From Heptranchias perlo (Eukaryota): DNA of 64,000 nucleotides. The notes under the pieces are model-generated. The model made no database searches and was not told the DNA's origin. It worked only from the letters and a program-made list of their open reading frames with translations. Shown here piece by piece: positions 6,086 to 63,905 of the stretch. Positions within the stretch are counted from its first letter, which is position 1, and each line of letters begins with the position of its first letter. The DNA lies in contig NC_090342.1 of NCBI RefSeq assembly GCF_035084215.1, positions 47,864,001 to 47,928,000 on the forward strand, read 5' to 3'. Position numbers and translations under genes: made by a program.

Positions 6086-8297
6086 AGACTTCCACCCTCC
6101 ATAAACTTAAGCTCATGCAAAACTCTGCTGTCCGTATCCTAACTCGCGCCAAATTCCATTTACCCATCGCCCTTGTGCTTGCCGATCTACATTGGCTTCT
6201 GATCCCCAAAAGCCTTGATTTTAAAATTCCCATCCTCGTATTCAAATCCCTCCTTGGCCTTGATCTTCTCTACCTCTGTAACCTCTTCCAGCCCTATAAC
6301 ACTCTTGAGAACTTTGCGTTCCTCCAACTTTGGCCTTTTGTGCATCCACTGCTTCCTTCACACCCCACCTTTGGTGATGGTGCCTTCAACCATCTTCAGC
6401 CAGAAGTGCCGAGTGGATAATCCATCTCAGCCTCCTCCCGATATCCCCACCATCACGGAAGCCAGTCTTCGGCCAATTCGATTCACTCCACGTGATATCA
6501 AGAAACGGCTGAGTGCACTGGATACAGCAAAGGCTATGGGCCCCGACAACATCCCAGCTGTAGTGCTGAAGACTTGTGCTCCAGAACTAGCTGCGCCTCT
6601 AGCCAAGCTGTTCCAGTACAGCTACAACACTGGCATCCACCCGACAATGTGGAAAATTGCCCAGGTATGTCCTGTCCACAAAAAGCAGGACAAATCCAAT
6701 CCGGCCAATTACCGCCCCATCAGTCTACTCTCAATCATCAGCAAAGTGATGGAAGGTGTCGTCGACAGTGCTATCAAGCGGCACTTACTCACCAATAACC
6801 TGCTCACCGATGCTCAGTTTAGGTTCCGCCAGGACCACTCGGCTCCAGACCTCATTACAGCCTTGGTCCAAACATGGACAAAAGAGCTGAATTCCAGAGG
6901 TGAGGTGAGAGTGACTGCCCTTGATATCAAGGCAGCATTTGACCGAGTGTGGCACCAAGGAGCCCTAGTAAAATTGAAGTCAATGGGAATCAGGGGGAAA
7001 ACTCTCCAGTGGCTGGAGTCATACCTAGCACAAAGGAAGATGGTAGTGGTTGTTGGAGGCCAAGCATCTCAGCCCCAGGACATTGCTGCAGGAGTTCCTC
7101 AGAGCAGTGTCCTAGGCCCAACCATCTTCAGCTGCTTCATCAATGACCTTCCCTCCATCATAAGGTCAGAAATGGGGATGTTCGCTGATGACTGCACAGT
7201 GTTCAGTTCCATTCGCAACCCCTCAGATAATGAAGCAGTCCGAGCCCGCATGCAGCAAGACCTGGACAACATCCAGGCTTGGGCTGATAAGTGGCAAGTA
7301 ACATTCGCGCCAGATAAGTGCCAGGCAATGACCATCTCCAACAAGAGAGAGTCTAACCACCTCCCCTTGACATTCAACGGCATCACCATCGCCGAATCCC
7401 CCACCATCAACATCCTGGGGGTCACCATTGACCAGAAACTTAACTGGACCAGCCATATAAATACTGTGGCTACGAGAGCAGGTCAGAGGCTGGGTATTCT
7501 GCGGCGAGTGACTCACCTCCTGACTCCCCAAAGCCTTTCCACCATCTACAAGGCACAAGTCAGGAGTGTGATGGAATACTCTCCACTTGCCTGGATGAGT
7601 GCAGCTCCAACAACACTCAAGAAGCTCGACACCATCCAAGATAAAGCAGCCCGCTTGATTGGTACCCCATCCACCACCCTAAACATTCACTCCCTTCACC
7701 ACCGGCGCACTGTGGCTGCAGTGTGCACCATCCACAGGATGCACTGCAGCAACTCGCCAAGGCTTCTTCGACAGCACCTCCCAAACCCGCGACCTCTACC
7801 ACCTAGAAGGACAAGGGCAGCAGGCGCATGGGAACAACACCACCTGCACGTTCCCCTCCAAGTCACACACCATCCTGACTTGGAAATATATCGCCGTTCC
7901 TTCATTGTCGCTGGGTCAAAATCCTGGAACTCCCTTCCTAACAGCACTGTGGGAGAACCGTCACCACACGGACTGCAGCGGTTCAAGAAGGCGGCTCACC
8001 ACCACCTTCTCAAGGGCAATTAGGGATGGGCAATAAATGCTGGCCTTGCCAGCGACGCCCACATCCCGTGAACGAATAAAAAAAAAGCTGTCTAGGCCCT
8101 AAGCTCTGGAATTCCCTCCCCAAACCTCTTCGTCTCTCCACCTCGCTCTCCTCCTTTAAGACACTCCTTAAAACCTATCTCTTCAACCAAGCTTTTGGTC
8201 ACCTGTCCTAATGTCTCCTCCTTTGGCTCAGTGTAAATTTTTGTCTGATTACGCTCCTGTGAAGCCTAGGGACGTTTTACTATGTTAAAGGCATTCC
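6086..8297 (+). mobile_element. L2 3' fragment interrupted by a younger LINE at 6387-8086
   Basis: QNSAVRILT..LHWL..FKI ORF2 C-terminus (ORF 6115); resumes at 8087 gctgtctaggccct; ends ataaatgcaagttgttgttg like the other L2 copies. Confidence 0.85.
6387..8086 (+). mobile_element. Young 5'-truncated copy of the tRNA-headed APE-RT LINE; uninterrupted RT ORF to stop at 8023
   Basis: RT motifs KAMGPDNI, NYRPISLL, LDIKAAFDRVWH, GVPQxSVLGP, FADD; 3' hairpin gctggc-ctt-gccagc; A tail; highly similar to 31143-32843. Confidence 0.95.
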
Positions 8298-13093: not shown

Positions 13094-13886
13094 AAATGTA
13101 GAAATTATTAAAATGCCTAATTTATCACATTCTTGATTTTTCAAATTTTGATGCAGAAGTGCTCAATGGACTAAAGGAACTAATAATTTTGAGCACGAAT
13201 CCTTTACATGCAACAGTAACAACAGCTTGCATATATATCACACCTTGCACGTAGCAAAGCAAATCAGAGGATAAATGGTTGCCAAGCAGTAATGGAAAAG
13301 CTAGGAGAGATGGCTGAAGCATGGTCAAAGGGAACAGAAGGTAGGAACATAAATAGGAAGGTGGAGAGGTTTATGAAGGAAGTTCGACAGTACAGTCAAG
13401 ATTCAAGTCACTAATATATTGAAGGGAGCCTGAGAATCCATAGACAGAACACCGAAGGGACGTAGGGTTGAAGGGAATTGCAGATATAGGAAAGGATTTG
13501 TAAATAAGGGTGACGCAATTGAATTCTTTGGGCACAGGGAGTCAACATTGGTCGGATAAGACTGGGATGATGGGTGAGCAGCACAGGATGTAGCGGGCAG
13601 AAAGAAAGGCAAGAGAAGTAGGAAGACGGGGGTAAGGGGAAAGAAGGTGACTGTTGAAATCGCTGACAATCAGGAGTTGCTCAGTGCGAAGTAAGGGAGG
13701 AGATTTCTTTTTTTAAAAAAATCCACAGTGGGTCTTTCAGGAGTGCTGGATAATGTGGGCTTTAAAGCTGGAATGGAAAACTGTTTGGTGCTCCAACAAG
13801 ACAAAGTTGCCAAAGAAGGAGGCTGAGATGGGATCTAGTGGTAATAGCCATGCTGCCGCCATGGCAGTTTGGGTGGGGTGCATGAT

Positions 13887-16245
13887 GAACATAAGAACAG
13901 GAGTAAGCCATTGAGCCCCTCGAGCCTTTTCCGCCAGTCAATGAGATCATGGCTGATCTGTATCCTAACTCCATCTACCCGCCTTGGCTCCATAACCCTT
14001 AATACCCTTGGTAGCAAAAATCTGTTGATCTCAGATTTAAAATTATAAATTGAGCTTGCACCGACTGCTTTTTGTGGGAGGGAGTTCCACACTTCTTCTG
14101 CCCTTTGTTTGAAGAAGTGTTTCCTAACTTCTATCCTGAATGTCCTGATTCTGATTTTAAGGTTATGTCCTCTTGTCCTAGAATCCCCCGCCAACGGAAA
14201 AAGTTTCTCTCTGTCTACCCTATCAATTCCTTTCAAAATCCTAAAAACCTCAATCAAATCACCCCATAAACTAGGCTTATATTCCCTGGAATATAGAAGG
14301 TTATGTAATCTCTCCTCATAGCCTAACCCTTGGAGCCTTGATAGTATTCTGGTGAATCTGCGCTGCACTCCTTCCAAGGCCAATATACCCTTTCTAAGAT
14401 GTGGTGCCCACAACTGTACACAGTACTCCAGATTTGGCCTAACTGGGGCTTTGTTTAGCTGTAGAAAAACTTCCTCCCCTTTATAATCTAGCCTTCTAGT
14501 TATAAAGGCTAACATTCCATTAGCCTTTTTGATTATTTTTTGTACCTGACTACTACATTTTAGTGATCTGCGTACATAGACCTCTAAATCTCTTTGGACC
14601 GCCGTTGCTTCTAGTTTTTCACCATTTAAGAAATACTCAGATCTATCCTTTCTGGGGCCATAATGGATGACTTCACACTTACCTGCGTTGAAATCCATCT
14701 GCCACAATTTTGCCCACTCACTTAATCTATCAATGTCTCTTCATAATTTTATGCTACCATTTACACTACTTACTATGCCACCTATCTTTTTGTTATGGGA
14801 AAACTTGGTTATATGGCTGTCTCTTGTGTTAGAATCATAGAATCGTTACAGCACAGAAGGAGGCCATTCGGCTCATCGAGCCTAGGGCTGGCTCTTTTTA
14901 AGAGCAATCCAGTTAGTCCCATTCCCCTGCTCTTTCCTGGTAGCCCTGCAAATTTTTTCTCTTCAAATATTTATCCAATTCCTTTTTGAAAGCCATGATT
15001 GAATCTACATCCACCACCCTCTCAGGCAGTGCATTCCAGATCATAACTAAAAAAGTTTTTTAAAGTTTTTACTTTCGTCACCTTTGGTTCTTTTGCCAAT
15101 CACCTTAAATTTGTGTCCTCTAGTTGTCAACCCTTCCACCAATGGGAATAGTTTCTCTTTATTTACTTTATCAAAACCAGTCATAATTTTAAACACTTCT
15201 ATCAAATCTCCTCTGAACCTTCTCTGCTCTAAGGAGAACAACTGCAGCTTCTCCAGTCTATCCACATAACTGAAGTCCTTCATCCCTGGAACTATTCTTG
15301 TAAATCTTTTCAGCACCCCCTCTAATGCCTTCACATCCTTCCTAAAGTGCAGTGCCCAGAATTGGACAAACTACTCCAGTTGTGGCTGAACCAGTGTTTT
15401 ATAAAGGTTCAACATAATTTCCTTACTTTTGTACTCTATGCTTCTATTTATAAAGTCCAGGATTCCGTATGCTTTTTTAACCACTTTCTCAACCTGTCCT
15501 GCCACCTTCAAAGATTTTGCACATATATCCCCAGGTGTCTCTGTTCCTGCACCCCCTTTAGAATTGTACCCTTTAGTTTATAGTGCCTCTTCTCGTTCTT
15601 CCTGCCAAAATGTATCACTTTGCACTTCTCTGCATTAAATTTCATCTGCCATGTGTCCGCCCATTCCACTAGCCTGTCTATGTTTTCTTGAAGTCTATTA
15701 CTATCCTCCTCATTGTTTACTACACTTGCAAGTTTTGTGTCAGCTGCAAATTTTGAAATTGTGCCCTGTACACCCAAGTCCAAGTTATCCAAGTCATTAA
15801 TAAATATAGTGACTAGTTGAGGCCCCAGCACAGATCCTTGTGGGACACCACTAGTCACTTCCTTCCAATTCGAGTACATCCCCATTATCCCTACACTCTG
15901 TCTTCTACCGCCTTACCAATCTCTTAACCAGTTCAACAATTTGCTTCAAGTCCATGAGCTTTAATTTTAGCTAACAGTTTCTTATGTGGCACCTTATTGA
16001 ATGCCTTATGGACATCCATACAAACTGCATCCACAGACATTCCCCAGTCTACTACTTTTAGTTACTTCCTCAAAAAATTCAATTAGGTTCGTTAGACATG
16101 ACCTGCCCATTCCAAATCCAAGTTGGGTCTGTTTAATCAGCTCAGATTTCTCTAAGTGCTCAGTCACTCTGTCCTTAAATATAGATTCCAATAACTTCCC
16201 CAAATAGGTCTATAATTTCCTGGTTTCTCTTTCTCACCTTTCTTT
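13887..16245 (-). mobile_element. CR1 ORF2 3' half, interrupted at 14831-15783
   Basis: ORFs 16006 (GKLLESI..SCLTNLIEFFE), 15508 (GVPQGSVLGP) and 13835 (WQMDFN..LVRP-like, LEYCVQLW); tail gaacataagaacagg at 13887. Confidence 0.9.
14831..15783 (-). mobile_element. Second CR1 subfamily copy nested in the CR1 above
   Basis: Own tail agaatcatagaatc at 14831; ORFs 15047 and 15508; 3-bp repeat GTT at 14828-14830 and 15784-15786. Confidence 0.88.
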
Positions 16246-29060: not shown

Positions 29061-30140
29061 TAGAAAATGCTGGAAACACTCAGCAGGTCAGGCAGCATCT
29101 TTAGAATCATAGAATCATAGAAGTTACAACATGGAAACAGGCCCTTCGGCCCAACATGTCCATGTCGCCCAGTTTATACCACTAAGCTAGTCCCAATTGC
29201 CTGCACTTGGCCCATATCCCTCGATACCCATCTTCCCCATGTAACTGTCCAAATGCTTTTTAAAAGACAAAATTGTACCCGCCTCTACTACTGCCTCTGG
29301 CAGCTCGTTCCAGACACTCACCACCCTTTGAGTGAAAAAATTGCCCCTCTGGATCCTTTTGTATCTCTCCCCTCTCACCTTAAATCTGTGCCCCCTCGTT
29401 ATAGACTCCCCTACCTTTGGGAAAAGATTTTGACTATCGACCTTATCTATGCCCCTCATTATTTTATAGACTTCTATAAGATCACCCCTTAACCTCCTAC
29501 TCTCCAGGGAATAAAGTCCCAGTCTGTCTAACCTCTCCCTGTAAGTCAAACCATCAAGTCCCGGTAGCATCCTAGTAAATCTTTTCTGCACTCTTTCTAG
29601 TTTAATAATATCCTTTCTATAATAGGGTGACCAGAACTGTACACAGTACTCCAAGTGTGGCCTCACCAATGCCCTGTACAACTTCAACAAGACATCCCAA
29701 CTCCTGAGAAACAGAGCTAACGTTTCAGGTTGGTGACCTTTCATCAGGACTGAAAGTTGCTAGAGATGAACAGCTTATGGAAACAAGAAATAGACATTCT
29801 GTAACCGTTTACACTTCCTCTGTACCCATCTTTTGTTTCTATATTTGTCCCATTATCACCTTCTTTTGCCTTCCACCATTATCACTTTTGTCATTTAATC
29901 ACTCCTGCCCTCCACCCTATCATAGACTTCTCCCTTTTGTTCTTTTTCCTGCCTCCTATTTTTCCTGGCTATGCTACTGCTTAAAAGCTGTTCACCTCTA
30001 ACATCTTCCAGTCCTGATGAAAGTCATCGACTTGAAAAGTTAACTGTTTCTCTCTTTGTCAGATATTGCCCGACCTGCTGAGTGTTTGCATCATTTTCTG
30101 TTTTTACTTCAGATTTCCAGCATCCGCAGTATTTTGCTTT
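29061..30140 (+). mobile_element. Palindromic Penelope-derived element of a second family, interrupted by CR1
   Basis: Inverted arms (agaaaatgctggaaacactcagcagg / cctgctgagtgtttgcatcattttct) plus about 40-nt tail; hammerhead-like cores at 29715-29751(-) and 30010-30045(+); flanks tgtccttcctaatta 29046-29060 and tgtccgtcctaatta 30141-30155. Confidence 0.78.
29102..29706 (-). mobile_element. Young CR1 3' fragment
   Basis: ORF 29187 from RSWDVLL onward; (CATAGAAT)n tail; nearly identical to 57214-57816. Confidence 0.95.
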
Positions 30141-31206
30141 TGTCCGTCCTAATTACTTGTATATTAAAAGCGGAGCCAGATGTTTCAGATGACGGATGTT
30201 GCCGGTTTAAGTGAGTGCATCTGGATATATCCCGTCGGTGGCCTTATTCTGAAAGCCCCACCGCAGTCACCTCAGGCTACATAATTCTACAAAAATAAAA
30301 TTGCTCAAGTGATTTTTAAACTAGATTCACGACATGACAGCTTGCCTTCCGATCCAAGACAGCATTGTTCCGATATTTTGGAAGCTGGTGTGCTTCAATA
30401 TAAAATTCCTTTACTTTGCCTCCGCTCTGGGTATTCCCTGCTTCTCTCCCGAACAAGACCAATGGGACATGCCTCCAAGGAGGGCTCCAACAGCAGAAAG
30501 TGTAGGACAGTTACGTATTGCTTTAGTGTTTGCAAAACGTCTACTAATGAGAGTTGAGCTATGAAGGTAGATTGTAATGAAATGAGGAACCAAGATCAAG
30601 CGTTTGAACGAAGAAATAGTGACGGCCACTAACTTGAAACTGTGCCCTGTAGTCCAAACTCGTTGACAAGACTCTGTTCCTTTACAGCTCTGACAGTTTC
30701 GACTGTCCATCCTCTTCCTCCCCTGCTGCCTCATTACTTTTCTGATAAAATGGGGCATGGGATAGCAAGGAATTGAATGACATTGGCATAAGTATGAGTG
30801 TATCTACTTCACCATCAATAACTCAAACTCTTCCTTCACAAAGCACTGAAGGGATATAATTGTTACAGTATCAATGCTAACCTATTAATCGTGCAAATTG
30901 AATTCCATAAATAAGTCACCACTTTCTGTGCTGTTTGATTGATGAAAGATTTTGTTCCAGTCCATCAGTTGTTCCTTTCCCCCTTTAACTCTTTTTGCAC
31001 ATCATCAAAGACTGACTTGGTCATTGTATTTCAACATAATTTGAAGTGCTTTCCTTGGCTCTGTGTGGTTTAAACACGTTTATAAAACAAAAAAGCAGAA
31101 ACTCTGGCTACCCTCCAAATTGATGATACTTTCGAGAAGTACTTTTTTTTTTATTCGTTCACGGGATGTGGGCGTCACTGGCAAGGCCGGCATTTATTGT
31201 CCATCC

Positions 31207-33966
31207 CTAATTGCCCTCGAGAAGGTGCTGGTGAGCCGCCTTCTTGAACCGCTGCAGTCCGTGTGGTGACAGTTCTCCCACAGTGCTGTTAGGAAGGGAG
31301 TTCCAGGATTTTGACCCAGCGACAATGAAGGAACGGCGATATATTTCCAAGTCGGGATGGTTTGTGACTTGAGAGGGGAACGTGCAGGTGGTGTTGTTCC
31401 CATGTTGTGCTGCTCTTGTCCTTCTAGATGGCAGAGGTCGCGGGTTTGGGAGGTGCTGTCGAAGAAGCCTTGGCGAGTTGCTGCAGTGTATCCTGTGGAT
31501 GGTACACACTGCAGCCACAGTGCGCCGGTGGTGAAGGGAGTGAATGTTTAGGGTGGTGGATGGGGTGCCAATCAAGCGGGCTGCTTCATCTTGGATGGTG
31601 TCGAGCTTCTTGAGTGTTGTTGGAGCTGCACTCATCCAAGCAAGTGGAGAGTATTCCATCACACCCCTGACTTGTGCCTTGTAGATGGTGGAAAGGCTTT
31701 GTGGAGTCAGGAGGTGAGTCACTTGCCGCAGAATACCCAGCCTCTGACCTGCTCTCGTAGCCACAGTATTTATATGGCTGGTCCAGTTAAGTTTCTGGTC
31801 AATGGTGACCCCCAGGGTGTTGATGGTGGGGGATTCGGCGATGGTGATGCCGTTGAATGTCAAGGGGAGATGGTTTGACTCTCTTGTTGAAGATGGTCAT
31901 TGCCTGGCACTTATCTGGCGCGAATGTTACTTGCCACTTATGAGCCCAAGCCTGGATGTTGTCCAGGTCTTGCTGCATGCGGGCTCGGACTGCTTCATTA
32001 TTTGAGGGGTTGCGAATGGAACTGAACACTGTGCAGTCATCAGCGAACATCCCCATTTCTGACCTTATGATGGAGGGAAGGTCATTGATGAAGCAGCTGA
32101 AGGTGGTTGGGCCTAGGACACTGCCCTGAGGAACTCCTGCAGCAATGTCTTGGGGCTGAGATGATTGGCCTCCAACAACCACTACCATCTTCCTTTGTGC
32201 TAGGTATGACTCCAGCCACTGGAGAGTTTTCCCCCTGATTCCCATTGACTTCAATTTTACTAGGGCTCCTTTGTGCCACACTCGGTCAAATGCTGCCTTG
32301 ATGTCAAGGGCAGTCACTCTCACCTCACCTCTGGAATTCAGCTCTTTTGTCCATGTTTGGACCAAGGCTGTAATGAGGTCTGGAGCCGAGTGGTCCTGGC
32401 GGAACCCAAACTGAGCATTGGTGAGCAGGTTATTGGTGAGTAAGTGCCGCTTGATAGCACTGTCGACGACACCTTCCATCACTTTGCTGATGATTGAGAG
32501 TAGACTGATGGGGCGGTAATTGGCCGGATTGGATTTGTCCTGCTTTTTGTGGACAGGACATACCTGGGCAATTTTCCACATTGTCGGGTAGATGCCAGTG
32601 TTGTAGCTGTACTGGAACAGCTTGGCTAGAGGCGCAGCTAGTTCTGGAGCACAAGTCTTCAGCACTACAGCTGGGATGTTGTCGGGGCCCATAGCCTTTG
32701 CTGTATCCAGTGCACTCAGCCGTTTCTTGATATCACGTGGAGTGAATCGAATTGGCCGAAGACTGGCTTCTGTGATGGTGGGGATATCGGGAGGAGTCCG
32801 AGATGGATCATCCACTCGGCACTTCTGGCTGAAGATTGTTGCAAACGCTTCAACCTTGTCTTTTGCACTCACGTGCTGGACTCCGCCGTCATTGAGGATG
32901 GGGATGTTTGCAGAGCCTCCTCCTCCCGTTAGTTGTTTAATTGTCGACCACCATTCACGACTGGATGTGGCAGGACTGCAGAGCTTTGATCTGATCCGTA
33001 GGGTTGATCCCCTGGCTTGTTGGTAATGGTAGAGTGAGGAATATGCCGGGCCATGAGGTTACAGATTGTGCTGGAATACAATTCTGCTGCTGATGGCCCA
33101 CAGCGCCTCATGGATGCCCAGTTTTGAGCTGCTAGATCTGTTCTGAATCTATCCCATTTAGCACGGTGGTAGTGCCACACAACACGTTGGATGGTGTCCT
33201 CAGTGCGAAGACGGGACTTCATCTCCACGAGGACTGTGCGGTGGTCACTCCTACCAATACTGTCATGGACAGATGCATTTGCGACAGGTAGATTGGTGAG
33301 GACGAGGTCAAGTAAGTTTTTCCCTCGTGTTGGTTCGCTCACCACCTGTCGCAGGCCTAGTCTGGCAGCTATGTCCTTCAGGACTCGGCCAGCTCGGTCA
33401 GTAATGGTGCTACCGAGCCACTCTTGGTGATGGACATTGAAGTCCCCCACCCAGAGTACATTTTGTGCCCTTGCTACCCTCAGTGCTTCCTCCAAGTGTT
33501 GCTCAACATGGAGGAGGACTGATTCATCAGCTGAGGGAAGACGGTAGGTGGTAATCAGCAGGAGGTTTCCTTGCCCATGTTTGACCTGATGCCATGAGAT
33601 TTCATGGGGTCCAGAGTCAATGTTGAGGACTCCCAGGGCCACTCCCTCCTGACTGTATATCACTGTACCACCACCTCTGGTGGGTCTGTCCTGCCGGTGG
33701 GACAGGACATACCCAGGGATGGTGATGGAAGAGTCTGGGACGTTGGCTGAAAGGTATGATTCTGTGAGTATGGCTATGTCAGGCTGTTGCTTGACTAGTC
33801 TGTGGGACAGCTCTCCCAATTTTGGCACAAGTCCCCAGGTGTTAGTGAGGAGGACCTTGCAGGGTCGACTGGGCTTGGTTTGCCGTTGTCGTGTCCGGTG
33901 CCTAGTGATCCGATGCCGGGTGGTCCGTCCGGTTTTATTCTTATTATGACTTTTCGTAGCGAGATT
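31207..33966 (-). pseudogene. APE-RT polyprotein ORF broken in two places
   Basis: ORFs 32929, 31799 and 31207. Frame break at about 33000 (KPGDQP joined to RIRSKLCS; internal deletion inferred). 2-bp AG loss at about 31880 relative to the 7341 copy. Confidence 0.88.
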
Positions 33967-34201
33967 TTACAACTGAGTGACTTGCTAGGCCATTTCAGAG
34001 GGCAATTAAGAATCAACCACATTGCTGTGGGTCTGGAGTCACATATAGGCCAGACCAGGTAAGGACGGCAGGTTTCCTTCCCTAAAGGACATTAGTGAAC
34101 CAGATGGGTTTTTACGACAATCCGGTAGTTTCATGGTGCTGGTATTTTAATTCCAGATTTTATTTAATTGATTGAATTTAAATTCGCCAGCTGCCATGGC
34201 G

Positions 34202-34275
34202 GGATTTGAACTCATGACTCTGGATTTTCGTCCAGGCCTCTGGATTACTGGTCCAGTAACATAACCACTATGCTA
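34202..34275 (-). promoter_or_regulatory. Type 2 Pol III internal promoter (A and B boxes) in a class II tRNA-like head
   Basis: TAGCATAGTGG fits TRGCNNARYGG; GAGTTCAAATCC is a B box; 51-nt spacing with hairpin ctgga-ccagtaa-tccag (7-nt loop) and a second hairpin ctgga-cgaaaa-tccag. Confidence 0.8.
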
Positions 34276-37095
34276 CCGTACCTTAGAGATGTCATGGGGT
34301 ATCAGCATTCATAGATTTTTATTGGTTGGAAGAAAGGCTATGCAGATGAAACGTTGCTACTTATTGTGCTTTTTGTATACCTCTGGATTTGTGTTGATAA
34401 CCTGGGAGTTGCTATGTTACAGTGCAGTTATGTGAAAACTGAATACCTAGCCATAGGTAAGGACACTGTTCCCCTAATTTCAAGGGGAAGTTTACTCCCT
34501 GAACAATTGCTTAAGCCTGGATGTGTTCCATGTGATCCTTATCACAGTGATACACAGATTGGTGGAGCCAAGGTATAAGGACCCCTAGTGTGTGTGCAAA
34601 GGTAAAGTTGGAGTTTAACTAACTAAAACTGTGTAGTATACCAATACAGAGTGCTGATAAGCTTCCTGTTTCTCATCCAGCTAGGAACACCCTATTCACT
34701 AGGGCATTGTCTTGTAGGGTTATTTGGAGCCGAGTGGGAAGAATCCCAGCACCCCAGTGATGAGTCTACCTGCCCAGGTTCCATTAGCGAGCTAGGCTGT
34801 GCACATCGTCAACAGTACCCTGGAACACTGCAGACATGCCTGGCTTAGTTATCAGATTTCCAAGTTATATTTACAGGTTCTTTTCTAAGACTTTATACTT
34901 AATCACCACAAAATTGCAGCAGTTAAATTTTGTACTGACTGTTAATTTAACATTATAGTCCATGCAAAATAATTATCATGAAACTTGGTGCACCTTTAAA
35001 CAGTTTAACTTATTTGTGAACTTTTTGCTCATCCAAGCCAGGGATGTTAGTGCTGGGAAACGAAGTATTTTCTTTACCCATCGTCTGCATCTGTCCTGTA
35101 TTCTACATGGACTGGACTCGATGCTGGGTGAAGCTCTCCACACCAATGTGGTAGAACATTAACCTCAGAAATTCACCCTGCAGTGTATTAACAGAACATT
35201 TCCATTTCCCAAACCAGCTATCCTGTTTGTGAGGTTGCCAATTTGTGCACTGGGAACTTGACTGAGACTGCCCAAACTCATTTCACATGGGATCCTGGAC
35301 ACTGGAAGACTATTGACCCATCAGCCTCAAAGGATTTTTTTTTAGACAACATTTGACCTCTTATTTTCATTTTAGGTTATGAAGCACCAGCAGTAGAGAT
35401 GGTGAATGGGCAATATGCTCCCAGGCCTCGTCGGTGCAGTTCCAAAGTACCCAACAAGGGTTGTGTGAGAGCAGGCTTGAGTGACCTCCTTTTTGCGTGA
35501 GGAAACAGGAAGTGAAGGCCAGACAGTACTCCACAGTAGTACACCTGCAATAGAGGATTTGACCTCGTGGCTTTCGGATCTGTGTCCCATCGCTCCACAG
35601 TGCTGCGTGTTGATTCTGAACCCGAGCACAGTTCTTGGGAGACCTGCAAACCCAGTTTTACAGCCCAGCCACTTCCCCAGTATGAACTCTGCCTCATCTG
35701 TATAGTAACCCTGAATGTCTTGGAAAAAAGACATCCTGTTAATGCAAAGCTCAGTTATCTTTCTGCACTTGTCACTTTTATGCCTGGCAGAGTGACAGGA
35801 AAGTATTTAGTAGCACAAGCTCGCCTACGTGCAATCAATGCTTAGTGCATCAGGTTGCTGAGCAATATACAATGCCTTCTTCGGACTGAGAGAAAGGAGG
35901 CAGAGAAAGAGATCCAGATTTCATCCGCCTATTGCACCGACTCCCATTTACAGCTTCTAGTTTTTTTTTGTATTAATTTCCTATCCTTGTTTTTTTTTTC
36001 CATGTGCCAATTTTCTTCTATTTTCGCGAACTTATTTTTTTCCTACCCATCTACACTTTGTGCCATTGGGAAAAATGAATTGGGGGTGGGGGGGAAACTA
36101 GCAGACCATTACGCTGGGCTGAAAGCCACCCAGCTCTAGCCTCCTCAATGGCTTGAGTCCTTATTTCAGATCATCAATTAGTCAATGTGATCATGGCAGG
36201 GAAAAGTATCTGATTCATTTTTAATACCACTTACGCTTTCAGTAGCACATTGTTAACGGGATTGAGTCCAGTGTTTTTTTTAAGATTACAGTAGTTTAAA
36301 GGACACTGGTTATCTGAAATCTATCATTAGTGACATGCTGCTTTGAGCAGGATCTGTTGTCCTGATTTTTCAAGTCTTCTGAGATCACCGCTCTGAAAAC
36401 TGACCTGTCTCACGAGAGCTTATTTTTATTTCATTCTCTGGAGTATTTCCAGTCTTAAAAGTCAAACCCCAGTAGTTGCTCACTAACTGGGTTTTGAAGA
36501 TCTGTTTTGTGTTGCAAGACAGATTGGGACAATTTCATGAAAAACAGGAAGTGTTTGTGGAATTCAAGGTGTGGATTGAAAATGTAGATTCAAGGACTGG
36601 TGATTTCCCTACAAGCTGAAAGGACTGAATGGCTTCCAGCCCAGCCATTTTGCTAACGTTCAAAACATTTGTGTCCTTACACACTGACGACAGCGCTGTG
36701 ACATAAATGAAGAGTTACTGCTGCCTCCAAGAACCATTGAAGGAGGTGGGTTTCAGCTGGACCTCCTGAGGTCGTGGGCATTACTGGCTTGTATAGTTCT
36801 TCCACAATGGTTGAGAATTGATAAGGTGGCAAGAAACAAGGTTGCACACATTCATTTGTTTATCTGTTGCTCCAGTGAGAGAGAGTCTGTCCCACAGCAT
36901 GAAGCAGGAAGGTCCCACAGCACCAACAGCCTGGGTATTACAAAACCCAAACTACTACGTTGTACATTTGTAGGAACTGAAGGTGTCTATTCACCATACA
37001 TGCTATTTAACAGAGGAATTTCAGAACTTACCCAGAAGGCTCCCCTCATCTTGTTCTTAGCAGTAATTTTTTTTGATTTTAGCTACAATTTCGAT

Positions 37096-46600: not shown

Positions 46601-47779
46601 TTTTTTTTTACGTTTATGGGATGTGGGCGTCGCTGGCGAGGCCGGCATTTATTGCCCATCCCTAATTGCCCTTGAGAAGGTGGTGGTGAGATGCCTTCCT
46701 GAACCGCTGCAGTCCGTGTGGTGACGGTTCTCCCACAGTGCTGTTAGGAAGGGAGTTCCAGGATTTTGACCCAGCGACGATGAACGAACGGCGATAAATT
46801 TCCAAGTCGGGATGGTGTGTGACTTGGAGGGGAACGTGCAGGCGGTGTTGTTCCCATGTGCCTGCTGCTCTTGTTCTTCTAGGTGGTAGAGGTCGCGGGT
46901 TTGGGAGGTGCTGCCTTGGCGAGTTGCTGCAGTGCATCCTGTGGATGGTACACACTGCAGCCACTGTGCGCCGGTGGTGAAGGGAGTCAATATTTAGGGT
47001 GGTGGATGGGGTGCCAATCAAGCGGGCTGCTTTATCTTGGATGGTGTCGAGCTTCTTGAGTGTCGTTGGAGCTGCACTCATCCAAGCAAGTGGAGAGTAT
47101 TCCATCACACTCCTGACTTGTGCCTTGTAGATGGTGGAAAGGCTTTGGGGAGTCAGGAGGTGAGTCACTCGCCACAGAATACCCAGCCTCTGACCTGCTC
47201 TTGTGGCCACAGTATTTATATGGCTGGTCCAGTTAAGTTTCTGGTCAATGGTGACCCCCAGGATGTTGATGGTGGGGGATTCAGCGATGGAAATGCCGTT
47301 GAATGTCAAGGGGAGGTGGTTAGACTCTCTCTTGTTGGAGATGGTCATTGCCTGGCACTTATCTGGCGCGAATGTTACTTGCCACTTATGAGCCCAAGCC
47401 TGGATGTTGTCCAGGTCTTGCTGCATGTGGGCTCGGACTGCTTCATTATTTGAGGGGTTGCGAATGGAACTGAACACTGTGCAATCATCAACAAACATCC
47501 CCATTTCTGACCTTATGATGGAGGGAAGGTCATTGATGAAGCAGCTGAAGGTGGTTGGGCCGAGGACACTGCCCTGAGGAACTCCTGCAGCAATGTCCTG
47601 GGGCTGAGATGATTGGCCTCCAACAACCACTACCATCTTCCTTTGTGCAAGGTATGACTCCAGCCACTGGAGAGTTTTCCCGCTGATTCCCATTGAATTC
47701 AATTTTACTAGGGCTCCTTGATGCCACACTTGGTCAAATGCTGCCTTGATGCCAAGGGCAGTCACTCTCACCTCACCTC
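46601..47779 (-). mobile_element. 5'-truncated copy of the tRNA-headed LINE
   Basis: ORF 46662-47771 nearly identical to the 6387 copy, with an in-frame 9-bp deletion; T tract at 46601-46609. Confidence 0.95.
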
Positions 47780-48251: not shown

Positions 48252-48678
48252 GTTCGGATGGATGTCGGCGTCGCTGGCAAGGCCAGCATTCATTGCCCAT
48301 CCCTAGTTGCCTTTGAGAAGTTGGTAATGGGCCTTCTTGAACTGCTGCAGTTCTTTGTAACTTTTTTTTTGATACAACTGAGTAGCTTGTTAGGCGACTT
48401 GGTTCAACCACGTTGGTGTGGGACTGAACTCTCATATAGGCCAGACCGGGTACGGTCGTCAGGTTTCCTTCCCTAAAAGGACATTGGTAAACCAGTTGGG
48501 GTTTTACAACAACCTGACAGCTTCATGGTCACGTTTACTGGTACCAGCTTTTTATTTCCAGATTTTTGTTTTCTCAAATTGCCATAGTAGGATTTGAACT
48601 CACATTCTACTGGATTATTAGTCCAGGCCTTTGAATTACTAGTCCAGTAACATAACCACTATGCTACCCTACCCGTAC
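48252..48678 (-). mobile_element. tRNA-derived SINE sharing both 5' head and 3' tail with the LINE at 31143-34282
   Basis: 48373-48669 aligns to 33968-34282 and 48252-48351 aligns to 31153-31258; A box 48656-48666, B box 48590-48601. Confidence 0.88.
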
Positions 48679-52248: not shown

Positions 52249-55200
52249 TTGGTTCTTTGGTTTTAAATTTCCAGTTTAAAACCAAACGTTTCAGGCCGGT
52301 AGTTATAAACCCTACAGAACTACATTCAATTCAGGTCCAAACTGATGGACGGCCAATATAACCATACAAGCACTTCCACTTCTATAATTACTCACGTGAT
52401 GAATTGCTGATTTTTATTTGCGCTTCCTGCGGGAGACTTGTGTGGACGACGGGTGGGATAGAGCAGTGTAAGGAATGGGATGGGGGGGAACGGGGGGAAT
52501 TGCTGAGGTGCTTGTTGGCAGAAGGAACCTTAATTTTTTTTTCCCTTTTGATTTTCTCTCGCCACCCCCGGAGGTGAAGACACCCCCTATTACCTCACCC
52601 AAGCAGCTATTGTTTAAATCTGAGCCTGGATGATGATTGTTGACTGTCCTATCCTGTCCTCTGAGCAGAGTGACTGGCTAGTGATTGGGAGCAGGAACCA
52701 TTATTTCCCCTTCCTGCTGCTTAGCTGTGTGATCAGACTGAACCTGGCTTTTCTGGCTCGGCCTCAAAGCTTCACTTGACCTTTACCCATAAGGCCACTG
52801 GGGCAACTAGGCAATCATCTGTTTTTGAAGGTGACCTGCTATTTGCAAGTAGATTTTTGGAAAGGGATACTGCAACTTGAAAAGCTTTTGCAGTAAAAAA
52901 AATAACGTGCTAAATTTAGCCCTGCTTAAACTGGAACCTTTTTTTTCCCCCCTGAGGTAAATTCAGCAATTTTTTTAAATTTGAAGTCTTAAACGTTACC
53001 CTTTACCAAACAGTGCTCCAGTGTAAAATTGGCAAGAGCACCCTGCCTCCCCCTGCACCCCCCGCCCCCCCCACACACACACACACACAAAGGAATCAGC
53101 GCACGGTTTATATTAGATTATTACCGAGATTTGTTTTAGTGTCATGCTGCCGGAATACGTGATCATGCACCCACACAATGAGCAGCTTGACCGCTGATAT
53201 AAACAGGCCATCTCTGATCCATGTTACAGTGATCCCTGGAATAAATTGCTACCTTGTCACTTTCTGGCTTTTGTTACAAACGGGGCTTTTGAAATTCTGA
53301 ATTGGATCTTTTAACTACTTCTCTCTCTGACTGCTCAGAGCTGCCCCCCCCCCCCACTCCGTGTTTCTGGGATGTTGCGGGGGGTGGGGGGGAGATGATG
53401 CGTAGAGTTGAAATTTTGGTGCAGGCTCTGCAGGAGGCTCGTTGGACCCATCTGCTTCACGCCAGCTGGAAAATAGGACAGTGCCTGGTTTGTGGGAACA
53501 GATGGCCTCTGGGGAATGGGTGGGGGTGGGGAGGGAGAGGGTTTCCCGCTGCAAGTTCCTGTTTAGGGCAAATTAAACCAGATGTGCCCAGAAGAAGCAG
53601 AGTTTACACTAATGAGATTTCATAGAGGTCAAGAACAGGAACTGTCCCTAATTAACCCTTCGAGGTCTACGTTTCCGCAGACATTGGATGCAAAACGTTT
53701 CTCTATCAGCTAATGTTAGAACGTAGCCTAGAAATGCTGGATTAATGCAAACTTAAGGGCTTCTACATAAAGAAGCTACAACTCATTCTCCAAAGCACCA
53801 AACAGCTGATTTTATTTCAATCTATATCCTGGACAAGGAATATTTAAGCTGCATTCTTATAATTTTGTGTAAACTTACAATTAGTACTTGAAGCATAAAG
53901 GAGGAGGTTTAAAGATTTTTCTCATGCAAAGGTTATTAAAAGTATAGAATGAAGTTGCATCAATCACAATGTGTAAGAGAAGATTAGATAAACACTTGAA
54001 GAGAAGTGTTACAATATGGGAAAAAAAGCAGGAGAACAGGATTAAAGTATCTAACTGAATTGGAGCTAATACTGGTGCATGTACAAGGGATAGAATTCCC
54101 CCCTCCCCCTTCCAGGAATAGGAGTAGGCCATTCAGCCCATTGAGCCTGTCCCACTGCTTTGTTAGTCATGCCAGCTCTATCTTTTAAACCACAATTCCT
54201 TACCCTTTTTCCCAAATTACATATTAATCCACTTGCTTCCCAGTAATAACAAATCTCCCTTGATTGATTCTGTATTTATGTCCATTCCACATTCTCACTA
54301 CCCTCAATAATTGGTAATAATTTTCCAAAATTCTCTGGACTCGGCAAAGGTCCCGGCAGATTGGAAAACTGCTAATGTAACACCCTTATTTAAAAAGGGT
54401 AGTAGGCAGAAGGCTGGAAATTATAGGCCAGTTAGCCTAACATCTGTGGTGGGTAAAATTTTGGAATCTATTATTAAGGAGACAGTAGCAGAACATTTGG
54501 ATAAACATAATTTAATAGGACAAAGTCAGCATGGCTTTACGAAGGGGAAGTCATGTCTGACAAATTTGCTTGAGTTCTTTGAGGACATAACGTACAGGGT
54601 GGATAAAGGAGAACCAGTGGATGTAGTGTATTTAGACTTCCAGAAGGCATTCGACAAGGTGCCACATAAAAGATTATTGCTCAAGATAAAGAATCACTGG
54701 ATTGGGGGTAATATTCTGGCATGGGTGGAGGATTGGTTATCTAACAGGAAGCAGAGAGTTGGGATAAATGGTTCATTCTCGAACTGGCAACCAGTAGCCA
54801 GTGGTGTTCCGCAGGGGTCAGTGCTGGGTCCCCAACTCTTTACAATCTATATTAACGATTTGGAGGAGGGGACCGAGTGTAACATATCAAAGTTTGCAGA
54901 TGACACAAAGATGGGAGGGAAAGTAGAGAGTGAGGAGGACATAAAAAACCTGCAGGGTGATATAGACAGGCTGGGTGAGTGGGCGGAGATTTGGCAGATG
55001 CAATACAATATTGGAAAATGTGAGGTTATGCACTTTGGCAGGAAAAACCAGAGAGCAAGTTATTATCTTGATGGCAAGAGACTGGAAAGTACTGCAGTTC
55101 AAAGGGATCTGGGGGTCCCAGTGCAAGAAAATCAAAAAGTTAGTATGCAGGTGCAGCAGGTGATCAAGAAGGCCAACGGAATGTTGGCTTTTATTGCTAG

Positions 55201-55770
55201 GGGGATAGAATATAAAAACAGGGAGGTATTGCTGCAGTTATATAAGGTATTGGTGAGACCGCACCTGGAATACTGCATACAGTTTTGGTGTCCATACTTA
55301 AGAAAAGACATACTTGCTCTCGAGGCAGTACAAAGAAGGTTCACTCGGTTAATCCCGGGGATGAGGGGGCGGACATATGAGGAGAGGTTGAGTAGATTGG
55401 GACTCTACTCATTGGAGTTCAGAAGAATGAGAGGCGATCTTATTGAAACGTATAAGATTGTGAAGGGGCTTGATCGGGTGGATGCGGTAAGGATGTTCCC
55501 AAGGATGGGTGAAACTAGAACTAGGGGGCATAATCTTAGAATAAGGGGCTGCTCTTTCAAAACTGAGATGAGGGGAAACTTCTTCACTCAGAGGGTGGTG
55601 GGTCTGTGGAATTTGCTGCCCCAGGAAGCTGTGGAAGCTACATCATTGAATAAATTCAAAGCAGAAATAGACAGTTTCCTAGAAGTAAAGGGAATTAGGG
55701 GTTACGGGGAGCAGGCAGGAAATTGGACATGAATTTAGATTTGAGGTAGGATCAGATCAGCCATGATCTT

Positions 55771-57213: not shown

Positions 57214-58396
57214 AATCATAGAATCATAGAAGTTTACAACATGGAAACAGGCCCTTCGGCCCAACATGTCCATGTCGCCCAGTTTATACCACTACGCTAG
57301 TCCCAGTTGCCTGCTTTTGGCCCATATCCCTCTATACCCATCTTACCCATGTAACTGTCCAAATGCTTTTTAAAAGACAAAATTGTACCCGCCTCTACTA
57401 CTGCCTCTGGCAGCTCGTTCCAGACACTCATCACCCTTTGAGTGAAAAAATTGCCCCTCTGGACCCTTTTGTATCTCTCCCCTCTCACCTTAAATCTATG
57501 CCCCCTCGTTATAGACTCCCCTACCTTTGGGAAAAGATTTTGACTATCAACCTTATCTATGCCCCTCATTATTTTATAGACTTCTATAAGATCCCCCCGA
57601 AACCTCCTACTCTCCAGGGAAAAAAGTCTCAGCCTATCCAACCTCTCCCTATAAGTCAAACCATCAAGTCCCGGTAGCATCCTAGTAAATTTTTTCTGCA
57701 CTCTTTCTAGTTTAATAATATCCTTTCTATAATAGGGTGACCAGAACTGTACACAGTATTCCAAGTGTGGCCTTACTAATGTCTTGTACAACTTCAACAA
57801 GACATCCCAACTCCTGTATTCAATGTTCTGACCAATGAAACCAAGCATGCTGAATGCCTTCTTCACCACCCTATCCACCTGTGACTCCACTTTCAAGGAG
57901 CTATGAACCTGTACTCCCAGATCTCTTTGTTCTATAACTCTCCCCAACACCCTACCATTAACGGAGTAGGTCCTGGCCCGATTCGATCTACCAAAATGCA
58001 TCACCTCACATTTATCTAAATTAAACTCCATCTGCCATTCATCGGCCCACTGGCCCAATTTATCAAGATCCCGTTGCAATCCTAGATAACCTTCTTCACT
58101 GTCCACAACGCCACCAATCTTGGTGTCATCTGCAAACTTACTAACCATGCCTCCTAAATTCTCATCCAAATCATTAATATAAATAACAAATAACAGCGGA
58201 CCCAGCACCGATCCCTGAGGCACACTGCTGGTCACAGGCCTCCAGTTTGAAAAACAACCCTCTACAACCACCCTCTGTCTTCTGCCGTCAATCCAATTTT
58301 GTATCCAATTGGCTACCTCACCTTGGATCCCGTGAGATCTAACCTTATGTAACAACCTACCATGCGGTACCTTATCAAAGGCTTTGCTAAAGTCAC
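57214..58396 (-). mobile_element. Young 5'-truncated CR1 with uninterrupted RT ORF
   Basis: ORF 57297-58400 DFSKAFDKVPH..VPQGSVLGP..FADD; same subfamily as 29102. Confidence 0.96.
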
Positions 58397-58789
58397 CCAT
58401 GCTTTAGTGATACTTGCTCTGATTTATGCCTCTATTTTAAGAAATTTGATTTCTTTTAGTTGCATTTTATAAAGTTGTACAACTATCTGCCCTTCTATAA
58501 CGAGCACATCATTCTTTGCTTACAACTGAAGCATTTGTTTTTTGAATTGATGGTGCTAATGCAGTCTCAAATCCTGTTCAAAGGAGAAAATTGTTGAATA
58601 AACTAGCAATTCAGCTTCTGTTTGCCACTTAACCAGAGTAAACTTGGATTAAATGAAACACATTTTGTATGTGAATAATATTCACCCTGAATGAACTTGC
58701 ATGTGGGTGCCAGAATGACGATGCTCAGTCCAATTTCTGAAATTTTGGTGGTCAGAAAAAGTACTTGTCACCACCTGTCTCCTATCGTC

Positions 58790-62435: not shown

Positions 62436-63905
62436 TTACGTGTGGCGTGACATGAACCCAAGATCCCGGTTGAGGCCGTCCTCATGGGTGCGGAACTTGG
62501 CTATCAATTTCTGCTCGACGATTTTGCGTTGTCGTGTGTCTCGAAGGCCGCCTTGGAGTACGCTTACCCGAAGGTCGGTGGCTGAATGTCCATGACTGCT
62601 GAAGTGTTCCCTGACTGGGAGGGAACCCTCCTGTCTGGCGATTGTTGCGCGGTGTCCGTTCATCCGTTGTCGCAGCGTCTGCATGGTCTCGCCAATGTAC
62701 CATGCTCTGGGGCATCCTTTCCTGCAACGTATGAGGTAGACAATGTTGGCCGAGTCACAGGAGTATGAACCATGCACCTGTTGAGTGGTGTCCTCTCGTG
62801 TGATGGTGGTATCTGTGTCGATGATCTGGCATGTCTTGCAGAGGTTACCGTGGCAGGGTTGTGTGGTGTCATGGACGCTGTTCTCCTGAAAGCTGGGTAA
62901 TTTGCTGCGAACGATGGTCTGTTTGAGGTTGGGTGGCTGTTTAAAGGCGAGTAGTGGAGGTGTGGGGATGGCCATAGCGAGGTGTTCGTCGTCATCGATG
63001 ACATGTTGAAGGCTGCGGAGAACATGGCGTAGTTTCTCCGCTCCGGGGAAGTACTGGACGACGAAGGGTACTCTGTTGGTTACGTCCCGTGTTAGTCTTC
63101 TGAGGAGGTCTATGCGATTTTTCGCTGTGGCCCGTCGGAACTGTCGATCGATGAGTCAAACGTCATATCCCGTTCTTACTAGGGCGTCTTTCAGCGTCTG
63201 TAGGTGTCCATCGCGTTCCTCCTCGTCTGAGCAGACCCTGTGTATTCGCAGGGCCTGTCCATAGGGGATGGCCTCTTCGACGTGGTTAGGGTGGAAGCTG
63301 GAAAAGTGGAGCATCGTGCGGTTGTCCGTGGGCTTGCGGTAGAGTGAGGTGCTGAGGTGCCCGTCTTTGATGGAGATTCGTGTGTCCAAGAAAGAAACTG
63401 ATTCTGAGGAGTAGTCCATGGTGAGCTTGATGGTGGGATGGAACTTGTTGATGTTATCGTGTAGTCTCTTTAGTGATTCTTCGCCGTGGGTCCATAGAAA
63501 GAAAATGTCGTCGATGTATCTGGTGTATAGCGTTGGTTGGAGGTCCTGTGCAGTGAAGAAGTCGTGCTCGAACTTGTGCATGAAAATGTTGGCGTAGTGG
63601 GGTGCGAATTTGGTCCCCATGGCTGTTCCGTGCGTTTGGGTAAAGAACTGGTTATCGAAGGTGAAGACATTGTGATCCAGGATGAAGCGGATGAGTTGTA
63701 GGATGGCGTCTGGAGATTGGCTGTTGTTGGTGTTGAGTATTGATGCTGTCGCAGCGATGCCGTCAACGTGGGGGATACTGGTGTAGAGTGCCGAGACGTC
63801 CATCGTGGTGAGAAGTGTTCCTGGTTCAACTGGTCCGTGGGTACTGAGTTTTTGTAGGAAGTCTGTAGTGTCGCGACAGAAGCTGGGGGTTCCCTGTACG
63901 ATGGG
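62436..63905 (-). pseudogene. PLE RT-GIY-YIG ORF with one in-frame stop
   Basis: ORFs 63156-63803 and 62436-62975 are in the same frame; a single TGA at 63156-63158 is followed by 60 open codons. Confidence 0.9.

Follow-up and report, generated by a model that had tools for sequence, protein, structure and literature searches.

A tRNA-like head and depletion of Pol III terminators in a shark Zenon family: a candidate Pol III-transcribed, protein-coding LINE

We describe an autonomous, single-ORF LINE of the Zenon type in the shark Heptranchias perlo over whose whole length RNA polymerase III (Pol III) likely transcribes from the A and B boxes of a tRNA-like head. The copy from which we describe it lies on the minus strand (34282-31143) of the window, that is, the whole 64,000-nt stretch of DNA that was analysed (NC_090342.1, positions 47,864,001 to 47,928,000), and is a decayed member of a ~3.3-kb single-ORF APE-RT LINE family. 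In its fuller form the proposal is of a shark and ray retrotransposon that would code for protein in a 3.3-kb, uncapped, terminator-free Pol III RNA, be translated from a non-AUG start through a SINE body, have been kept since the shark-ray split and give birth to SINEs by deletion of its ORF; taken as a whole, we find this somewhat easier to believe than to doubt. The head, the terminator depletion and the AUG-less ORF appear to be the new features here of an already published Zenon family; if Pol III transcription were confirmed, the element would be categorically new.

Layout of the element and the 5' end of its family

The window contains the following features:

34190..34282, minus strand: tRNA-derived head, the element's 5' end lying at tRNA position +1 (Rfam tRNA 14.1 bits, below threshold)
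34265..34275, minus strand: A box, tRNA positions 8-18, read in the sequence
34220..34235, minus strand: hairpin between the anticodon-like arm and the B box, like a long variable arm (sequence and centroid fold)
34202..34213, minus strand: B box, read in the sequence, ~50 nt past the A box
33967..34189, minus strand: Deu-like body common to the LINE and the SINE family (comparison of copies)
33001..33966, minus strand: ORF piece 1, with an Arg/Lys-rich leader, the APE endonuclease and the start of the linker (PF03372, PF14529)
32995..33005, minus strand: junction of a copy-specific ~150-nt deletion, with frameshift (gap relative to other copies)
31799..33000, minus strand: ORF piece 2, linker and reverse transcriptase (PF00078, E 1.5e-37)
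31207..31896, minus strand: ORF piece 3, with the C-terminal region and the stop codon, set off by a frameshift in the window copy
31143..31206, minus strand: short 3' UTR, in common with the SINE tail, and poly-A tail (comparison of copies)
6387..8086, plus strand: 5'-truncated family copy, 97% identical, without sense TTTT
46601..47779, minus strand: 5'-truncated family copy, 94% identical
48260..48673, minus strand: ORF-less SINE of greater age that shares head, body and tail, 77-82% identical
54311-55732, 57297-58403, 13835-14740 and 29187-29759: canonical CR1 copies (control)
62436-63905: Penelope-like element (control)

Among the controls, the CR1 family of 54311 is very young, with 99% identity among its top matches, and the element at 62436-63905 has a reverse transcriptase and a likely GIY-YIG region, from which we take it to be Penelope-like.

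The earlier note on this DNA had read the element as a class II (Leu/Ser-like) tRNA-shaped head with A and B boxes, followed directly by one APE-RT ORF and no ORF1. The boxes are present, the tRNA-model scores are weak (14.1 bits with Rfam tRNA against a gathering threshold of 29, and 0 tRNA genes found by ARAGORN in the window), and the class II assignment derives only from the A-B spacing and the extra hairpin. Weak scores with tRNA models are usual for SINE heads. The head and the ORF are not adjacent, as ~230 nt of body sits between them; we take this body to be Deu-like, a label drawn from its layout, the host group and the description of SacSINE1. The body contains several upstream AUGs, and ~14 nt of it are missing near 34135 in the window copy, which also begins with GG where most family copies begin with GGG. 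The single ORF without ORF1 is a property of the family and not of the broken window copy, whose ORF is split in three frames: the endonuclease (~33843-33241, with no in-frame AUG ahead of it) lies in piece 1, the reverse transcriptase (~32545-31895) in piece 2, and the C-terminal region of piece 3 stays in one frame in the copy at 6387-8086. With its three frames and the ~150-nt deletion near 33000, the window copy is dead. Its poly-A tail occupies 31152-31143, and it has no clear target-site duplication; such duplications are mostly not evident in the other copies, one of which has a clear 17-bp example.

When the first 583 nt were used as a query against the 3.25-Gb genome, 5339 first-look candidates were obtained, and the head was joined to the ORF in all of the best 40, which were scored (39 besides the window copy). 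Two further searches were made independently of the head, with endonuclease-region DNA as the query; each yielded a list of 39, from which 29 other loci were taken for examination. Among the resulting 58 copies, 28 have their start no more than 10 nt from tRNA +1, the other 30 start at scattered points from 26 to 809, and their upstream flanks contain neither a recurrent sequence beyond unrelated repeats nor a recurrent alternative 5' end. Because so many begin at +1 and the rest look like scattered truncations, the head is the true 5' end of the family, whose full length is ~3.3 kb; the suspicion that it might be unique to the window copy is thereby removed. A query built on a diverged 3' fragment brought back mainly young copies. 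The A-box pattern is intact in 40 of 50 head-bearing copies and the B-box pattern in 38, with no majority difference in the B box between the LINE and the old SINE family. One old copy (L336:1100-1320, 71-76% identity) has a tRNA-like head joined to the ORF, the additional hairpin and the greater part of the body being absent, an arrangement seen in this copy only. Several full-length copies (L215, L223, L224, L057, L079, L080) sit within older family copies in the opposite orientation.

By sequence, the family matches the elasmobranch Zenon elements of PMC13343379. It has a single ORF with APE and RT domains and no ORF1, as in Zenon of the CR1 group, and a poly-A tail, a feature that within the CR1 group is reported for Zenon alone. 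It is homologous to the published elasmobranch consensuses over their first 400 nt, as judged by eye and by exact short motifs, two short window motifs occurring in the elasmobranch Zenon rows of the PMC13343379 supplement. Elasmobranch Zenon elements such as SquAca_Zenon-1 and CarCar_Zenon-1 are likewise ~3.3 kb long, with APE, RT and a poly-A tail and without ORF1. In a midpoint-rooted RT tree of 40 rows, which included no named Zenon or L2 reference, the family sits in a clade of 21 rows (99/99), among them a protein of the crab Scylla olivacea, away from canonical CR1; RT identity to the CR1 proteins of the window is 32-34%. Membership in canonical CR1, a lineage with an esterase ORF1 and no poly-A tail, was rejected on account of the separate clade and the poly-A tail.

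All seven elasmobranch rows of the PMC13343379 supplement, where the first 400 nt of each consensus are given, open with the head and the body; they represent 5 species (one row each for white shark, whale shark, catshark and stingray, three for dogfish); in that stretch A- and B-box-like motifs can be seen by eye in 7/7 rows and no run of four T in any. On these sequences, sharks and a ray alike have the head as their fixed 5' end. It opens none of the three rows from hagfish (two) and coelacanth (one) in the same supplement, and these rows are T-rich. The arms of the 34220-34235 hairpin differ in sequence in the white shark, catshark and whale shark rows of the supplement, with pairing kept by eye. 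The words tRNA, promoter and polymerase have no match in the text of PMC13343379 or its preprint, so the family is published and its head unremarked; the head, the terminator depletion and the AUG-less start are all absent from the Zenon description given there. A literature search, of which Repbase and Dfam were not part, returned no description of the head, nor of any autonomous LINE that begins with a tRNA head or is transcribed by Pol III. Among more distant sequences, ARAGORN, run on 54 of 80 metagenome loci, found no tRNA in them, and a regular expression for the boxes matched no A/B pair ahead of the longest ORF in any of the 80 metagenome relatives, most of which are distant or incomplete; a viral contig search gave no matches, and a genome contig search one, unrelated. 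A clade relative with 42% protein identity (L130:100-480) has a 5' UTR with two short repeated motifs, no tRNA head and 20 sense T4 runs; these repeats resemble RTE-type 5' ends. The 5' ends of Zenon elements look like modules that have been exchanged.

Depletion of terminator motifs on the sense strand

Read by eye, the sense strand had been said to contain no TTTT and about seven TTT, with more than 15 runs of four or more T on the antisense strand. The counts agree: 0 runs of four or more T (T4+) and 7 of three or more (T3+) on the sense strand, and 19 T4+ runs on the antisense strand, one of which is the poly-A tail. On neither strand of the window is there a longer stretch free of T4 than the element itself (3344 bp), and the next two in length are the two truncated copies of the same family; the CR1 ORF at 54311, credited with at least 4 TTTT in 1.4 kb, does have 4 T4 runs in 1419 nt. 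Base shuffles of the whole element in 3 natural copies give 4.3-4.6 T4 (P 0.005-0.015) and 22 T3 (P 0.002), in line with the rough expectation of ~4 and ~20 made beforehand, and dinucleotide shuffles of 3 natural copies give P 0.07-0.12 for T4 and 0.005-0.018 for T3. At the level of the family, 45 of 60 copies have no sense T4 in their aligned part and any one sense T4 site is common to at most 2 of 28 near-full-length copies, which makes for a consensus free of sense TTTT. TTT is the second most depleted of the 64 trimers and TTTT the second of the 256 tetramers, the top ones containing CpG.

With column-majority codons as the yardstick, synonymous-codon shuffling gives 12.3 T3 runs where 5 are observed (P 0.002) and 2.0 T4 where there are none (P 0.095, not significant), the test on TTTT alone lacking power. 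TTN codons follow a T-ending codon in 0/29 cases, against 184/845 for codons that do not start with T (P 0.002). Human Pol III terminators are described in the available part of PMC3141230 as declining in strength in the order T4/5 > T3VT2/T2VT3 > T3VT/TVT3 > T2VT2, an isolated T3 being inactive. The depletion follows this order, the rules being those of human and not of shark: T3VT/TVT3 is found 0 times in the ORF where 3.8 are expected, whereas the weakest class, T2VT2, is found twice where 2.1 are expected. One copy (L212) has six TTT, none with another T within two bases. When T4+, T3VT and TVT3 are combined, a set taken from PMC3141230 and applied after the TTT deficit was known, the whole element contains 0 against 7.3 expected under synonymous shuffling (P=0.0007), and the ORF by itself 0 against 4.5 (P 0.003). 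Depletion under codon shuffling thus survives for TTT and for the combined motifs, and not for TTTT taken singly.

The same combined motifs are not depleted in the controls, namely CR1 (9 against 10.7 expected and 9 against 10.0) and Penelope (6 against 4.8); the clade relative L130 has 40 against 43.9. CR1 copies (n=28) contain 2.3 T4 per kb, and T4 is present in the longest ORF of 78 of the 80 metagenome relatives. Among the families tested, the terminator-motif deficit is specific to this Zenon family. Three loci that were T-poor at first look (L131, L148, L201) have T4 runs elsewhere and no 5' end. An older lineage of the family, 13% diverged (229/1778 columns against a young copy), has 0 T4 and 4 T3 at majority level over 23 loci; being related to the young family, it is no independent replicate. 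Avoidance of splice acceptors was considered as a cause and rejected, 8-nt pyrimidine tracts not being depleted (18 against 10.6 expected).

The dinucleotides TA and TT are also depleted under synonymous shuffling (P 0.0007 each), as strongly as the terminator motifs, so a general avoidance of U may contribute. Such avoidance may serve RNA stability or the evasion of a nuclease that cuts at UU/UA, RNase L for example. It is a component of the foremost alternative, which we regard as unlikely though worth serious weight: a captured SINE head serves as the 5' UTR, RNA polymerase II (Pol II) transcribes the element from an internal promoter in the head or body, and the scarcity of T reflects avoidance of U-rich dinucleotides. 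The TA and TT deficits speak for this explanation, but TTT is still low when dinucleotide counts are fixed, as in the dinucleotide shuffles above, and CR1 of the same genome has no TA, TT or T-run deficit.

Reading frame, translation start and transcribing polymerase

At majority level the family ORF is open for 972 codons, and its first Met is codon 249, past the endonuclease. Variants present in at least 3 copies comprise 35 synonymous and 16 replacement changes, private ones 236 and 560; in the endonuclease, the shared non-CpG variants are 14 synonymous and 4 replacement, against 58 to 138 among the private. The 972-codon ORF, including its AUG-less endonuclease, is under purifying selection. 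Given that the endonuclease is selected and yet has no prior Met, we infer translation from a non-standard start. In most of the published consensuses (rows of the PMC13343379 supplement) an AUG stands ~30 codons upstream of the endonuclease; by eye, the two share a frame in one deleted dogfish row but not in the stingray row. The Heptranchias perlo codon at that site is AUA in all 51 copies (of 60) in which the site could be matched. From these sequences, the start of translation does not look like ordinary cap-dependent scanning. A Met-Ala-stop mini-ORF is found at the end of the body (window 33984-33992) and, by eye, in 6/7 of the published elasmobranch rows. Read-through of its stop was considered and rejected, most copies having a second in-frame stop and the frame differing, by eye, among the published consensuses.

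We propose that TFIIIC and TFIIIB would start the RNA at tRNA +1, that selection would have removed T4 and the weaker T3VT/TVT3 terminators, letting Pol III run for 3.3 kb, that translation of the RNA, which we predict to lack a cap, would do without an in-frame AUG, perhaps aided by the Deu-like body, and that target-primed reverse transcription would let the APE-RT protein copy the RNA that encodes it. The suggestion of a Pol III-transcribed autonomous LINE, first made in the earlier note, is favored by the head and by the tests on TTT and the combined motifs, and tempered by the result for TTTT alone and by the low TA and TT. Further points count against it: the A and B boxes could have been kept because the head is needed as an RNA structure, and the element has no Pol III terminator at its 3' end. 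T runs do occur there, 12 of 50 parsed tails having 2-7 T ahead of the A run. As terminators these were rejected, because the T + A length stays near 10-11, as expected from decay of the A tract after insertion; A tails are often converted to a T run plus an A run with the total length unchanged (e.g. L031, L044, L061). The lengths reported until now for Pol III elements are 0.1-1.3 kb, a range attributed to low processivity in the available text of PMC10886601. In four contig sets, presumably of RNA and from 4 other organisms, 30/30 bins are covered and head-to-tail joints are present; since these carry no start, strand or level, they were not used as evidence of expression.

Transcription by Pol II accords with the general habit of LINEs (as stated in the available parts of PMC10886601 and PMC5786205), and with an AATAAA-like junction ahead of the poly-A tail, and any internal promoter predicts a sharp 5' end. 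However, the AATAAA is produced by GAAT and the A tail itself, and scanning from a cap would meet the several upstream AUGs of the body and no in-frame AUG ahead of the endonuclease. A division of labor, in which Pol III makes the template RNA and capped Pol II read-through of some copies gives the protein in trans, would spare any uncapped RNA from having to be translated, and short ORF-less derivatives with the head do replicate in trans. We consider it rather improbable, as purifying selection on the ORF along a replicating, headed lineage fits action in cis, and as mobility purely in trans favors short derivatives, yet LINE copies make up 23 of the top 29 head-only matches. That the locus is a chance SINE-LINE chimera, lacking T runs by accident, allows for an absence with P ~0.01 by itself (~4.5 TTTT expected), but with the head-ORF junction in 39/39 other scored places (best 40 of 5339) and in 5 other species it is already refuted for the head and scarcely credible overall. 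Transcription by Pol III from the head is the reading that we prefer.

Birth of SINEs and relation to other retroelements

An older SINE family (30 loci) has ~330 nt of head and body and a ~105-nt tail in common with the LINE, the tail including the last codons of the LINE ORF. The LINE has the head with A and B boxes that marks tRNA-derived SINEs (SINE2), its Rfam score being below threshold; as a short, non-coding and non-autonomous SINE it was rejected in view of its 3.3 kb and its selected 972-codon ORF. The 6 of the top 29 head-only matches that are not LINE copies are short elements; of 23 LINE-diagnostic alleles they have 21-23, whereas alleles of the old SINE are absent from them. Four of them, on different contigs, have one shared deletion junction and their own A tails. 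Together these observations show that the LINE makes replicating SINE-like elements by deletion of its ORF. The four (L383:1500-1934, L393, L394, L401) form a young ~435-nt SINE-like subfamily with one shared internal LINE deletion, and two other short elements (L385, L403) have other deletion junctions.

SacSINE1 and LmeSINE1 are non-coding DeuSINEs of ~430-460 nt with a tRNA head, a central body and a LINE-derived tail, and are described in the available parts of PMC5499810 and PMC4824008 as taking only a LINE 3' tail (L2-2_CM or CR1-4_DR-like). The layout of the old SINE family is the same and fits SacSINE1 as described in PMC5499810, a match by description and not by alignment, but this SINE shares both ends with its LINE, and the autonomous LINE carries head and body too, not the tail alone. 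For chimaera and coelacanth there are reports of the SINE module and none of a headed Zenon, which favors capture of a SINE front end by the LINE in the elasmobranch ancestor.

R2 elements have an uncapped non-LTR RNA that is translated without a standard AUG start; it is a Pol I co-transcript released by a ribozyme, and the elements encode a restriction-like endonuclease. The uncapped RNA and non-AUG translation proposed for the shark LINE would resemble these, the polymerase, the ribozyme and the endonuclease type being different. Persaeus elements (SIDEs), as described in the available part of PMC6740152, are short derivatives of the lepidopteran Zenon that arose by internal deletion with both ends kept, as did the shark short elements. 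Persaeus is described there without tRNA homology or a Pol III promoter, whereas the shark derivatives carry a tRNA head and a predicted promoter and so resemble ordinary SINEs. Cassandra, Helenus and Ajax (TRIMp3) are likewise retroelements other than SINEs with Pol III promoters derived from small RNAs, but are described in the available text of PMC10886601 as LTR-type, non-autonomous, non-coding and at most 1.3 kb long.

Whichever polymerase is used, a LINE already equipped with a head has a direct route to the birth of a SINE, namely the deletion of its ORF, and the family suggests that annotation splits such elements into a SINE and a LINE. The origin and role of the Deu body are an open question according to the available part of PMC5786205, and Pol III transcription, if true, would offer a possible function for its conservation. 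It would also supply a long mRNA made naturally by Pol III, on which cap-independent, non-AUG translation could be studied as a test case, and would break two textbook divisions, namely that LINEs use Pol II and that Pol III makes only short non-coding RNA.
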